DNA of 64,000 bases from Patescibacteria group bacterium (GTDB taxonomy: Bacteria; Patescibacteriota; Gracilibacteria; UM-FILTER-43-11): contig JAHJBZ010000033.1 of assembly GCA_018813295.1 (NCBI GenBank), positions 7,422 through 71,421 on the forward strand. Reading direction: 5' to 3'. The notes under the pieces are model-generated. The model saw nothing but the letters and a program-made list of their open reading frames with translations, did not search any database and was not told the DNA's origin. Of this stretch, positions 16,340-19,725 are shown one piece after another. The translations under genes were made by a program, and so were the position numbers. The number at the start of each line of letters is the position of its first letter. Position 1 is the stretch's first letter.

Positions 16340-16390
16340 GTTAGCGTTAAGGATTAAGCGTTAAGGATTAAGCTGAATTCTGAATTTTTA
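16340..16390. repeat. 7-nt periodic arm overlapping the tilS 3' end
   Basis: ttagcg ttaagga ttaagcg ttaagga ttaagc tgaattc tgaatt. Confidence 0.7.
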
Positions 16391-17613
16391 ACCCCCTCAG
16401 CTAATCTCAAGTCACCGACTGAAACAATAATATCATTTTTATCAACGATGATAGGAATTTGGTGGCGTAAATGGCGAGGGACTTTGCTGTCTACAAAGAA
16501 ATCCTGCAACTTTTTACTGCCTTTCATGCCACTTGGCTGAAATCGATCACCCTTTTTCCATGCACGGACGTAGAGTCCGGACTTGTCGGATTTCAGCTTC
16601 CAGACTCCCCATTTAATGCCCTTGGCGGTGATTTTTGCTGTTGGGAGACTTGGAGTCCGGACTCCAAGTAAAATATTGTCATATTCGATGAAAAAATCCT
16701 TATTTTTAACCGTTAACTGCCTCCCGGACTTGCCGTTTTCAATGAAATCGAGTAAGCGATTGATTGATTTTTGATATAAATCCTTCGCCCCCAAAATTTG
16801 AATCAGGATTTCTGATTTTAGATCATCGGACAGCTTGTTAAATTCACTGCGATTGAATTGGTTGCCTCTGACGGAGTTCCGACGGAGCCCCGCTAAGCGG
16901 GGGTTCGTTCGGCTGTTTTCCATATTTTCCCTGACCCAGCCGTCGGATTTTTTGGAGATAGTTTCCAGTTTTTCCTTCGCCTTTTTGCTAATGCTTTGGA
17001 TTTTTTTAGCGAGATTGGCACCTCTAAAATACGGGATTACCAAATGCCTCCAATAATTCCTGTCATTACTCAAATCATAATTACTGCGATCTGTGCGGTA
17101 TGGGAGGTTGTTTTCCTTTGCATAATTAACGACATCTAGACGCTTTACGTCCAAAAGCGGACGAATGATGTTGCCGCTTTGAAATTCCATTCCAATTTGC
17201 CCACGTAGACCTGCCCCACGAGCCATATGCATTAAAATTGTTTCGATTTGGTCATTAAGGTGGTGTGCAACGGCAATAAAATCAGCATTATGCTTATTTC
17301 GGACTTCCTCTAAAAATTGATAACGGATTTGGCGAGCATTATTTTCCAGGTTTCCGGTTTTTGGAATCGTTGCTTTTTTAGTAACACATTCCACTCCCCA
17401 CTCTTTTGCTAAATTGCGGACTAACTGTTCGTCTGCATCACTTTCCTCCTCTCGCAGTTTGTGGTTTAGGTGGGCAATTACGACGTCGTAATCCAATTGT
17501 AAAAGAACGTGGGCTAGCACCACACTATCCACTCCACCGGACACGGCAATAACTACCTTTTTGAAAGGCGGAATTTTTTTTAGGCCGGATTGGACAGATT
17601 TAGTGAAATTCAT
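16354..17613 (-). CDS. tilS: tRNA(Ile)-lysidine synthetase
   Basis: AVSGGVDS PP-loop, AHLNHKLR, AHHLNDQIET, IRPLL, C-terminal KKLQDFFVDSKVP. Confidence 0.95.
   Translation of the reverse strand: MNFTKSVQSGLKKIPPFKKVVIAVSGGVDSVVLAHVLLQLDYDVVIAHLNHKLREEESDADEQLVRNLAKEWGVECVTKKATIPKTGNLENNARQIRYQFLEEVRNKHNADFIAVAHHLNDQIETILMHMARGAGLRGQIGMEFQSGNIIRPLLDVKRLDVVNYAKENNLPYRTDRSNYDLSNDRNYWRHLVIPYFRGANLAKKIQSISKKAKEKLETISKKSDGWVRENMENSRTNPRLAGLRRNSVRGNQFNRSEFNKLSDDLKSEILIQILGAKDLYQKSINRLLDFIENGKSGRQLTVKNKDFFIEYDNILLGVRTPSLPTAKITAKGIKWGVWKLKSDKSGLYVRAWKKGDRFQPSGMKGSKKLQDFFVDSKVPRHLRHQIPIIVDKNDIIVSVGDLRLAEGVKNSEFSLILNA
16868..16916. repeat. CCGACGGAG/CCCGCTAAGCGGG element inserted in-frame in tilS
   Basis: ttccgacggagccccgctaagcgggggttcgttcggctgt; matches reverse complement of 25761-25800. 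Confidence 0.85.
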
Positions 17614-17659
17614 ACTAAGCCAAGTATACGATTAAAAATGCATGTTGTTAAATTAAGTG

Positions 17660-17688
17660 TTGATAAGTGAACATATGTTTACTAAAAT
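17660..17688 (+). promoter_or_regulatory. Promoter with operator-like palindrome upstream of PemK-like gene
   Basis: TTGATA-17-TAAAAT; spacer is AGTGAACAT|ATGTTTACT (1 mismatch). Confidence 0.65.
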
Positions 17689-17716
17689 GAAGTTGATGAA
17701 TTTTTATGGTATCTAA

Positions 17717-18118
17717 ATGAATAATCAGTACAAAAAGAATTTTTGGGATTGGCATGAGATTAAAAATGCCATACATCATACCAGCAAAAAACAAGTCTAT
17801 TTTTATGAAAGGGAAATATGGTTTTGTTCTTTAGGGGTAAATGTTGGTCATGAGCAAGACGGAGGTAGTAAAACATTTAAAAGACCTGTTTTAGTATTAA
17901 AAAAATTTAATAAAGAAACATTTTGGGGTATTCCAATCACAAGTAAAAACAAAATAGACAAATATCATTTTCAATTCCAGTATAAAAACAGAAGATATTC
18001 TCTTATATTGTCTCAAGTTCGCCTCTTAGATTCAAAAAGGCTAATAAAAAAAATTAATTCACTTTCGAAGAAAGAATTTGATCAGATTAAAGAACAATTT
18101 GTAAAAATTCTTCAATAA
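17717..18118 (+). CDS. PemK/MazF-family toxin-like protein (no adjacent protein antitoxin)
   Basis: EREIWFCSLGVNVGHEQDG, KRPVLVLKK, GIPITSK, LSQVRLLDSKRL. Confidence 0.85.
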   Translation: MNNQYKKNFWDWHEIKNAIHHTSKKQVYFYEREIWFCSLGVNVGHEQDGGSKTFKRPVLVLKKFNKETFWGIPITSKNKIDKYHFQFQYKNRRYSLILSQVRLLDSKRLIKKINSLSKKEFDQIKEQFVKILQ

Positions 18119-18172
18119 AAATGACCCCACTTTCCATGGAAGGGGGATCATTGGAGGCCGAAGCCGATAGTG
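18116..18172 (-). ncRNA. Candidate small RNA convergent with the PemK-like gene
   Basis: Minus-strand TG-a-TAAAAT at 18178-18186, GGC-TTCG-GCC hairpin, then GC-rich hairpin and T-tract. Confidence 0.4.
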
Positions 18173-18201
18173 CCTGTATTTTATCAAAGATTTTAAATAA
18201 A

Positions 18202-19725
18202 TCAATGCAAAAACGCCCTTGTACCTGTAAACACCATCGCAATTCCCGCATCATCAGCGGCTTTAATTACTTCTTCGTCTTTAATTGATCCTCCTGGTTG
18301 AATGATGGCGGTGATTTTATGCTCAGCGGCTTTTTCGACGCTATCCGGGAATGGGAAGAAAGCATCGCTGGCCATTACGGAGTCGTCTTCACGGTTCATT
18401 GCCTTTTTAATTGCAATTTCAACTGCGTCCACACGACTCATTTGTCCGGCACCGATTCCGACTGTCATTCCGTTTTTGGCTAGGACTATGGCGTTTGATT
18501 TAACGTGTTTTACAACGTGCCAAGCAAAAAGCAGATCTTTTAGTTCTTGATCGCTTGGTTTGCGTTTGGTGACTATTTTTAGATCATCTGCTGTAATTTG
18601 TTTGGTGTCGAGGTCTTGGATGAGCAGGCCATTACTCACTTTGCGATAAGTGCGAGCTGGTGGCTGGGGTTTAATTTCGCCTATTTTGAGCACTCGGAGA
18701 TTTGGTTTTGTTGCAAAAGCTGTAAGTGCCTCTTCTTCAAAATCCGGAGCGATAATTACCTCGAAGAATTTACTGACAATACTTTCGGCAATATCTTTTG
18801 TGCATGCTCTGTTAAAGGCAATAACTCCGCCGAATGCGGATTTTGGATCGCCCTGATATGCATTTATAAATGCCTCGTTTAAGTCTTTTGCAGTTGCGAT
18901 GCCGCATGGATTTGCATGTTTGATAAATGCAACTGTTGGCTCTGCAAATTCGCGGACTAAGCTGAGGGCGCCATCGGCATCCATGATGTTGTTGTAGGAA
19001 AGTTCTTTGCCCTGGAGCTGCTCGGCCTTATCCAGAGAAGCTTCTCCGTGACCATTTTTATCGCGATAGAATGAAGCTTTCTGGTGAGGATTCTCCCCAT
19101 AACGCAAATCACCAAGTTTTTCGACTATTATATGTTCGGTTTTACCGCCTGTGAGGTAATTGGCAATAAGGCTATCATAATGAGCAGTGGCTTCAAAAAC
19201 TTTTTCGGCTAAACGTCGCCTGGTTTCCTCTTTTGTATTATCTCCATTTGATTCAATTTCTTTCCAGACTGATTCGTAATCATCTGGATCTGTTATTACA
19301 GTTACATAACGGAAGTTTTTAGCAGCACTGCGGAGCATGCTTGGACCACCAATATCGATTTGTTCGATGGCTTCTGGGAGCGCCACATCCTTTTTCTTGA
19401 TTGTTTCTTCAAATGGGTACAAGTTGACTACTACTAAATCTATTAGACCAATATCGTGCTCTTCAGCCGACTTCATGTGATCGGGATTGTCGCGAAGTGC
19501 AAGGATTGCGCCGTGGATTTTTGGATGCAAAGTTTTAACTCTTCCATCCATCATCTCCGGATGGCCGGTGAATTTGCTAACGTCGACGACATCAACTCCG
19601 TTATCCCGTAGTAATTTGGCGGTTCCGCCAGTTGATAGGATTTCAATACCTTTGTCGTATAGTTTTTTAGCGAATTCAACGATTCCGTCTTTATTGGAAA
19701 CCGAAATCAGGGCTCTTTTGATCAT
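18202..19725 (-). CDS. purH: Bifunctional AICAR transformylase/IMP cyclohydrolase
   Basis: RALISVSNK, GRVKTLHP, IDIGGPSM, LRYGENPHQ, ASDAFFPF. Confidence 0.97.
   Translation of the reverse strand: MIKRALISVSNKDGIVEFAKKLYDKGIEILSTGGTAKLLRDNGVDVVDVSKFTGHPEMMDGRVKTLHPKIHGAILALRDNPDHMKSAEEHDIGLIDLVVVNLYPFEETIKKKDVALPEAIEQIDIGGPSMLRSAAKNFRYVTVITDPDDYESVWKEIESNGDNTKEETRRRLAEKVFEATAHYDSLIANYLTGGKTEHIIVEKLGDLRYGENPHQKASFYRDKNGHGEASLDKAEQLQGKELSYNNIMDADGALSLVREFAEPTVAFIKHANPCGIATAKDLNEAFINAYQGDPKSAFGGVIAFNRACTKDIAESIVSKFFEVIIAPDFEEEALTAFATKPNLRVLKIGEIKPQPPARTYRKVSNGLLIQDLDTKQITADDLKIVTKRKPSDQELKDLLFAWHVVKHVKSNAIVLAKNGMTVGIGAGQMSRVDAVEIAIKKAMNREDDSVMASDAFFPFPDSVEKAAEHKITAIIQPGGSIKDEEVIKAADDAGIAMVFTGTRAFLH

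Follow-up and report, generated by a model that had tools for sequence, protein, structure and literature searches.

What, if not a protein antitoxin, could control a PemK/MazF-family gene that stands alone? This question was raised by one locus in a 64,000-nt stretch of DNA (hereafter the window) from a Patescibacteria group bacterium (contig JAHJBZ010000033.1 of assembly GCA_018813295.1, positions 7,422 to 71,421), in which an open reading frame (ORF) of 133 amino acids (aa; 17717..18118, + strand) lies between tilS and purH. The first-pass annotation, made from the letters of this DNA and a list of its ORFs, had proposed that the toxin-like gene is paired with a small RNA read convergently from just past its stop codon. 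An RNA gene was found beside homologues of the toxin gene in other genomes, on the opposite strand and with covarying stems. We consider it probable on balance that the 588 bp between tilS and purH are a self-contained, horizontally acquired toxin-RNA cassette, in which a LexA-repressed MazF-type ribonuclease (RNase) is opposed by a convergent antidote RNA acting as antisense at the overlapping 3′ ends.

The convergent RNA gene and its conservation

The cassette (17614..18201) is flanked by tilS (16354..17613, − strand), whose divergent start is 103 bp upstream of the toxin ORF, and by purH (18202..19725, − strand), whose convergent stop is 83 bp downstream of it. All the features on which the first-pass annotation had rested were present, namely the ORF, the divergent tilS, the convergent purH, the promoters, the palindrome, the hairpins and the U-tract at the stop codon. 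The toxin promoter (17660..17688, + strand) comprised a −35 box TTGATA (17660-17665), a 17-nt spacer and a −10 box TAAAAT (17683-17688), with 10 of 12 hexamer positions agreeing with the consensus in a consensus scan. On the minus strand a second promoter (18178..18205) comprised a −35 box TTGATT (18205-18200) that overlapped the purH stop codon, a 16-nt spacer, a TG extension (18186-18185) and a −10 box TAAAAT (18183-18178). From these promoters both RNAs are presumably made, the small one as a predicted transcript of ~57 nt (from ~18171 to ~18115, − strand). It would consist of a short leader, hairpin 1 (GGC-UUCG-GCC with a cUUCGg tetraloop, 18156..18165, seen in sequence and fold), the linker UCCAAUGA, and a GC-rich intrinsic terminator made of hairpin 2 (18150-18122) and a U-tract (together 18113..18150, − strand, by fold). 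The U-tract, UCAUUUUUAUUG, ran into the toxin stop codon (18116-18118). Within the window alone this promoter and hairpin are weak evidence; the comparison across genomes changed the picture.

The toxin gene was located in 151 fetched loci, of which 135 were unique. Conservation of the downstream motif beside homologues had been named beforehand as the test of the proposed RNA, and it was found: 78 of the 135 unique loci had the exact 10-mer GGCCGAAGCC, read on the gene strand 23-73 nt past the stop codon, no toxin stop was followed by it in the other orientation, and the remaining loci had covarying forms (GCCCGAAGGC, GACCGAAGTC, GGCCTAAGCC) or longer stems. A promoter on the strand opposite the toxin was borne by 77 loci, with a −35 box TTGACA (46/77) or TTGACT (26/77), a spacer of 16-17 nt (67/77), a TG extension (50/77) and a −10 box TATACT or TATAAT. 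The distance from the −10 box to hairpin 1 was 12 nt in 58 of the 77, containing ACAAAUG, and the 12 nt found in the window equal this family mode. The hairpin 1 10-mer was identical in 52 of these loci, and covarying variants such as GCC-UUCG-GGC and GAC-UUCG-GUC were seen.

Downstream, the homologues shared a cUUCGg hairpin, a short linker and a second hairpin often capped by GCAA or GAAA. The UUCG and GNRA (GCAA/GAAA) loops, the U-tract and a TTGACA-16/17-TGnTATAnT promoter were found on the strand opposite the toxin only, and the RNA gene was assigned to that strand because the tetraloops and the U-tract make sense only there. In class A (linker CUCCGAGA), to which the window copy belongs, the second hairpin was the terminator and its U-tract abutted the stop codon. 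In classes B and C a third hairpin and U-tract were formed by the last codons of the toxin gene, and RNA and ORF therefore overlap by ~30 nt. In the class with the linker UCGAAAC, a long perfect hairpin (e.g. AATCTGGTAATTTTTACCAGATT) followed by TTTGTTTT was seen directly before the toxin start codon (loci L028, L042, L043, L050, L075, L127, L151, L153 and L160); it may be either the terminator of the upstream gene or an attenuator before the toxin.

A covariance model (R1, 60 positions) was built from 21 class A elements of other genomes, with the window excluded. It matched the window at 18112-18174 (− strand) over its full length (1-60 of 60) with 33.7 bits and an expectation value (E) of 4.2e-7, the only match in the window and in the 1.53-Mb genome. 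Applied to 100 loci, it gave 84 matches at E≤1, 83 of which were on the strand opposite the toxin. In an alignment of 49 sequences, which was fitted by the model and hence leans towards it, 8 of 9 pairs had changed on both sides, none of 500 shuffles reached the observed values, and slid pairing partners scored far lower than the true pairs. The middle pair of the hairpin 1 stem had 15 double changes among the 49 sequences, and all 6 pairs of the hairpin 2 helix had changes on both sides. Covariation, for which the first-pass annotation had proposed a test, was seen in the motif and in the hairpins.

Of 150 further genomes sampled evenly from the phylum, 14 held the toxin gene, with 23 copies in total and up to 5 per genome. 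A scripted rule requiring a convergent promoter and a terminator ending at the stop codon, which by design misses classes B and C, picked out 13 of 21 even-sample copies, 46 of 128 in a larger set and 9 of 801 other ORFs. When the same 150 genomes were searched with R1 for the RNA only, 6 matches in 4 genomes were obtained. Three of them (E≤1.7e-5) each abutted a convergent PemK-like gene; the other three were weak (E ~2e-4, two of them only 29 and 43 nt long) and adjoined no PemK-like gene. One match (E 2.2e-4, locus L222, G100:C1:255123-255182) was situated ~940 nt from a complete module with no toxin gene beside it, and may be an orphan copy or a false match. No family of Rfam 15 matched the element (window at E≤10; 20 loci at gathering scores; 14 short class A-D loci at E≤1). 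Rfam has a family named 'pemK RNA motif', as mentioned in a passage of 10.1101/2024.10.12.618037.

A subfamily of PemK-like proteins without an adjacent protein antitoxin

The toxin ORF matched PF02452 (PemK_toxin) at residues 32-131 with E 6.2e-13 and 49.3 bits (cut-off 23.1), leaving an N-terminal extension of ~30 aa that is conserved within the subfamily. An orthologue of E. coli MazF was ruled out, since the ORF scored only 17.4 bits against the NCBIfam MazF equivalog, whose cut-off is 120. By profile alignment, the closest solved structure was B. subtilis EndoA/MazF (4mdx, E 2.3e-6), and R56 and T75 of the toxin fell in the same columns as R25 and T48 of 4mdx, which we take to be the catalytic residues of the B. 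subtilis enzyme. Among 30 aligned relatives, W12, K16, F29, R32, E33, W35, G40, N42, G44, E46, G49, R56, P57, F64, P73 and R108 were invariant, and T75 was kept in at least 90%. The protein is probably a toxic endoribonuclease. No match to it was found in the PADLOC defence-system library.

A search for protein homologues returned 464 clusters at E≤1e-3, nearly all of 127-135 aa and covering the N-terminal extension; the named clusters come from Patescibacteria. Among the matches listed, relatives were encoded by 579 of 601 pattern matches in contigs of one genome per species and by 533 of 602 in metagenome contigs. The nearest protein relative (80% identity) was on a contig of 1385 nt. A first metagenome scan for close orthologues with flanks found none, and a second found no relative above 56% identity among the matches listed; conservation was tested on distant relatives only.

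No antitoxin ORF fitted the 103-bp and 83-bp flanks of the toxin ORF, which bore out the earlier statement that there is no room for one. Among 76 homologue loci, a small ORF read in the same direction lay within 60 nt upstream in 15 and downstream in seven; no antitoxin family was recognized among the 24 small adjacent ORFs from these loci (0/24). The subfamily was solo across hundreds of genomes, with the RNA gene retained. The genome of the window also encodes three canonical PemK genes, each with an overlapping upstream partner (RHH_1 in one case, HTH_3 with SocA_Panacea in another, and one unmatched to a known family), and none of the three had the small RNA in the genome-wide R1 search. 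The genome, 90% complete, yielded no MazE/AbrB domain.

The promoter palindrome and the spread of the cassette

The spacer of the toxin promoter is filled by an 18-bp palindrome with one mismatched pair, AGTGAACATATGTTTACT (17666..17683), which the first-pass annotation had noted as near-perfect and had called an operator. Its core (17667-17682) differs by one mismatch from GTGAAC-N4-GTTCAC. In the 1.53-Mb genome, this motif had 3 perfect sites (0.06 expected) and 9 one-mismatch sites (2.5 expected); two-mismatch sites were not enriched (25 vs 44 expected). The set examined consisted of the 12 best genome sites and one two-mismatch site added by eye, and sites were 7-90 bp before ORFs identified by Pfam. 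Outside the window they were at C38:4548, C38:83418, C38:72656, C71:1291, C14:9994, C18:43029, C2:11281, C39:32949, C39:39404, C87:1136, C87:1167 and C47:4822 (contig and position in the window's genome, G000). A perfect site was 52 bp upstream of recA (RecA, E 1.8e-133). Two one-mismatch sites preceded a small operon whose last gene is a lexA candidate; this gene is behind one for a 23S-rRNA-intervening-sequence protein, with the two boxes ~400 bp further upstream. The candidate protein (192 aa, contig 87) matched Peptidase_S24 with E 1.5e-28 and positions 9-202 of 203 of TIGR00498 (lexA) with 110.2 bits. The predicted regulon mixed repair genes (RecA, MgsA/RarA and a RadA-like ATPase) with mobile or defence-type genes, the other ORFs behind boxes encoding Vsr, a C-5 DNA methylase (dcm), RhuM, a PD-(D/E)XK protein, an IS200-like transposase and an ORF6N protein.

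In all four toxin homologues of same-family genomes, the box was within the spacer between TTGACA or TTGACT and a TATAAT-like −10 box. Because of the motif counts, the recA- and lexA-type targets and the box in these four homologues, the palindrome is best read as a predicted SOS operator of this lineage, to which LexA would bind, and not as a site of toxin-antitoxin autoregulation; the palindrome itself stood, and its assignment was changed. The protein family as a whole does not share SOS control, and in other lineages other operator-like repeats were upstream of the toxin. In one 'Candidatus Peribacteria' locus (L029), TACTGTACATATGAACAGTA, a CTGT-N8-ACAG palindrome of the Gram-negative LexA type, was ~47 nt before the toxin start, the same position as that of the window's box. 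In another genome (G113), all five toxin copies (L234, L240, L242, L244 and L246) shared TTCAGG-N6-TCAGGAC ~45 nt before the start, a motif that points to another repressor, particular to that lineage.

Of 22 same-family relatives, at least 15 had a TilS-like ORF that followed purH on the same strand after 1-710 nt (by eye), without the cassette. As purH and tilS adjoin in these relatives, the 588-bp cassette is an insertion, and its hairpin is not an ancestral purH terminator, which largely removed a doubt attached to the first-pass annotation. In one relative (G028, locus L203) the purH-tilS spacer was occupied by an apparent canonical MazF-like ORF and, upstream of it, a partner ORF, on the opposite strand (by eye); toxin cassettes seem to have landed in this spacer repeatedly. 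Only 4 of 32 genomes of the window's order, the window's own included, had the toxin gene; this distribution, patchy like that in the even sample, marks it as an accessory gene.

A tblastn search placed subfamily members in Campylobacter CJIE4 prophages and on plasmids of three genera, Campylobacter, Helicobacter and Nitratiruptor, the last with 41% identity at 94% coverage. The subfamily profile matched, over virtually its full length, an ORF of pVir of C. jejuni 81-176 (E 1.4e-30), one of Nitratiruptor (4.5e-47) and one of CJIE4-3 (7.6e-30). The pVir ORF (WP_011117588.1, 134 aa) is solo and the only annotated toxin on pVir; convergent to it were a TTGATT-17-TATAAT promoter and a GC hairpin at the toxin stop. 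Both on pVir and in Nitratiruptor, a convergent −10 box or complete promoter preceded hairpins that reached to the toxin stop codon. For CJIE4-3, what was seen was a convergent extended −10 alone, with a predicted transcript that would enter the 3′ end of the ORF. The toxin gene of the CJIE4-3 prophage (L250) is between the genes for the terminase large subunit and the portal. On the Nitratiruptor plasmid (L249), a palindrome, ATTACAAA-N14-TTTGTAAT, encloses the −10 region of the toxin gene; downstream of the toxin, near the apparent site of the convergent RNA promoter, the annotation has a 62-aa 'hypothetical protein'. Dugar et al. (2013) mapped 70 start sites and small-RNA candidates on pVir, according to a passage of PMC3656092.

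Mode of action, rival explanations and known systems

The probable cassette would work as follows. With a LexA operator in its promoter spacer, the toxin gene would be silent until DNA damage triggers LexA cleavage. Its product would be a MazF/PemK-family endoribonuclease from a separate subfamily lacking a protein antitoxin, and the convergent ~57-nt RNA, made constitutively from its own extended −10 promoter, would counteract it. The toxin mRNA would read through the RNA gene, the small RNA would pair with the complementary 3′ end of this mRNA, RNase III would cut the duplex and the mRNA would decay, as in the 3′-overlap type I design of Bacillus. Once the SOS response is induced, toxin mRNA would outpace the small RNA, and translation would be slowed by the RNase while repair or the induction of a mobile element is under way. 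Four points favoured pairing at the 3′ end: the genes converge; the RNAs of classes B and C overlap the ORF; RNase III is encoded in the genome; and the toxin mRNA is expected to read through, since the hairpins have no U-tract on the toxin strand.

A number of observations weigh against this interpretation. A search for RNA sequencing runs that contain the locus found none. The window RNA overlaps only the toxin stop codon, and antisense action requires that the mRNA be assumed to read through past the hairpins. That hairpin 1 and the linker are conserved across phyla is not explained by a purely antisense role; their kept primary sequence is unneeded for antisense in cis and hints at another contact, e.g. 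with a protein. The window copy has diverged from the consensus precisely in the single-stranded parts of hairpin 1 and the linker. Complementarity of the RNA to the 5′ region of the toxin gene was no better than chance (33% of shuffles equal), and on this ground action in trans at the ribosome-binding site was rejected. Promoter-like sites were at chance level (3 vs 3.3 ± 1.8 expected in 1.1 kb), and the fold of a 101-nt segment was unexceptional (z −1.16; 26 of 200 shuffles folded equally well). R1 found only 6 of the 23 even-sample copies at E≤1 (7 matches in total, one extra in locus L224). Inspection by eye, on which the wider count depends, recognized a small hairpin, a promoter and, at the stop, a GC hairpin with its U-tract in ~19-20 of 21 evaluable copies. 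With R1 seeing 6 of 23 copies and the scripted rule 13 of 21, the family of RNAs is a heterogeneous one. The LexA box is lineage-specific: the strict motif, with up to 2 mismatches, was in 0 of 76 distant loci, and an SOS-type box was in only 3 of 135 unique distant loci (two degenerate GTRAAC-N4-GTTYAC and one CTGT-N8-ACAG, all at −46 to −48). The LexA candidate scored 0.75 bit below the NCBIfam cut-off of 110.95. The predicted structure of the toxin was poor, with a mean predicted local distance difference test (pLDDT) score of 59, residues 22-55 below 50 and residues 9-22 helical.

Some of these points fit another reading of the same cassette, that the RNA neutralises the protein directly, as a pseudo-substrate in the RNA-binding groove of the MazF-like dimer and possibly by way of the N-terminal extension. 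Hairpin 1 is identical in 52 of 77 loci and the linker motifs are kept even though the toxins are only 40-56% identical to that of the window; class A RNAs lie wholly outside the ORF, yet their sequence is conserved; the basic N-terminal extension is conserved in the subfamily and lacking in canonical MazF proteins; and type III toxins share the MazF/Kid fold, according to the part of PMC5086642 that deals with them. Against this, the type III layout is missing, as there are no tandem repeats and the convergent RNA has a promoter of its own, and the window copy departs from the consensus in the very single-stranded parts that a protein would read. Direct binding is a possibility that we take seriously, and we think it unlikely. 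A broader proposal, put forward only tentatively, is of a widespread design, as yet unclassified and outside types I, II and III as defined, in which a MazF-fold RNase with a dedicated N-terminal extension would be kept inactive through direct binding by one convergent structured RNA (cUUCGg hairpin, conserved linker, and a GNRA or terminator hairpin), and lineage-specific operators, here that of LexA, would determine when the toxin is released. In a third account the RNA is no antidote: the PemK-like protein would be its processing or partner enzyme, or the RNA would act in trans, the whole being a regulatory module. Genomes with 3-5 copies, and the many copies situated operon-like a few bases behind large genes, would suit such a module. 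It is made rather improbable by the patchy distribution (4/32 genomes of the order, 14/150 others of the phylum), by the cassette's place in a spacer where a relative has a MazF-like ORF with a partner ORF (by eye), by carriage on plasmids and a prophage, and by the keeping of R56 and T75, as is typical of addiction or defence cassettes.

Control by a protein antitoxin encoded elsewhere, e.g. the partner of a canonical PemK, with the RNA irrelevant, is suggested by the three canonical loci with partner genes in the genome. As the subfamily is solo in hundreds of genomes with its RNA gene kept, and no MazE/AbrB-type domain was found in the 90%-complete genome, we hold this to be very improbable. 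It is scarcely credible that the hairpin and U-tract do nothing but terminate purH and that the minus-strand promoter matches by chance in AT-rich DNA, a reading that is already largely refuted. Hairpin 2 and the U-tract are indeed downstream of purH on the same strand, the element being 50-90 nt past that gene, and they would stop purH transcripts too; the chance-level promoter count and the fold z-score also agree with it. On the other side, a model made from PemK-adjoining elements in unrelated contexts found the element (E 4.2e-7), the spacing from promoter to hairpin is the family mode, and in relatives purH runs straight into tilS without such an element.

MazF and PemK are textbook type II toxins with protein antidotes, and a subfamily partnered by RNA, if real, would link the three classical types; hundreds of genes labelled 'type II toxin' would then need a different partner annotated beside them. 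The tiny-genome Patescibacteria, in which we know of almost no regulatory RNA, would gain a defined small-RNA family absent from Rfam. LexA control would give the window's toxin a clear physiological trigger. Since full-length relatives are carried by plasmids and a prophage of cultured Campylobacterota, the cassette is directly testable.

Like MazEF and PemIK of type II, the locus encodes a protein that matches PF02452 and has B. subtilis EndoA/MazF as its closest solved structure; unlike them it has no adjacent, co-transcribed protein antitoxin gene and no autoregulatory antitoxin, and its toxin bears the extra N-terminal extension. The pairing of a PemK gene with an RNA, as the first-pass annotation had it, was supported by comparative conservation, while its analogy to type III was replaced by a convergent, type I-like layout. 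In type III systems (ToxIN, CptIN and TenpIN), as outlined in a section of PMC5086642, a MazF/Kid-like endoribonuclease is checked by a structured RNA, whose tandem repeats are upstream of the toxin under one promoter with a terminator between. Here, in contrast, the RNA gene is downstream, convergent and under its own promoter, no tandem repeats were found at 17300-18500, and the toxin matches PF02452, not the ToxN family.

Lex boxes are present at symE, tisB and dinQ of E. coli, toxin genes with RNA antitoxins (a passage of PMC6562991). The window locus resembles symE/SymR, tisB/IstR-1 and dinQ/AgrB in combining a predicted Lex box on the toxin promoter with a candidate RNA antitoxin. It differs from them in that their RNAs pair with the 5′ region, and its box is of the Gram-positive type GAAC-N4-GTTC. 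SymE is a nuclease-like protein, not a membrane peptide, and is as such an exception in type I; its fold is AbrB/MazE-like and differs from that of MazF. RalR is named as an exception to the rule that type I toxins are small hydrophobic peptides (part of PMC4041452). The toxin described here is likewise not such a peptide, but a soluble 133-aa protein of the MazF family.

In the 3′-overlap type I systems of B. subtilis (txpA/RatA, bsrG/SR4, bsrE/SR5 and yonT/SR6), the sections on them in PMC6562991 describe a convergent antitoxin RNA with its own promoter, which pairs with the 3′ end of the toxin mRNA, RNase III cutting the duplex. The present family is like these in that a promoter and a terminator converge on the 3′ end of the toxin gene and, in classes B and C, the RNA overlaps the ORF, and RNase III is encoded in the window's genome; it is unlike them in that the toxin, of 133 aa in the window, is a MazF-family protein instead of a small membrane peptide, and in keeping the cUUCGg hairpin and linker motifs, whereas the Bacillus RNAs are not conserved in sequence across phyla. 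Our literature searches found no paper on a PemK/MazF toxin with such an RNA partner. Shen et al. (2016) reportedly described an RNA antitoxin, cjrA, and a protein toxin, cjpT, on pVir as a novel type I subtype; that cjpT is the PemK-like ORF of pVir is unconfirmed. If it is not, a MazF/PemK toxin with a conserved RNA may be an undescribed pairing, though this is uncertain. If it is, the kind was known from one plasmid, and what is added here would be the breadth of the family, the architecture of the RNA and control by LexA.

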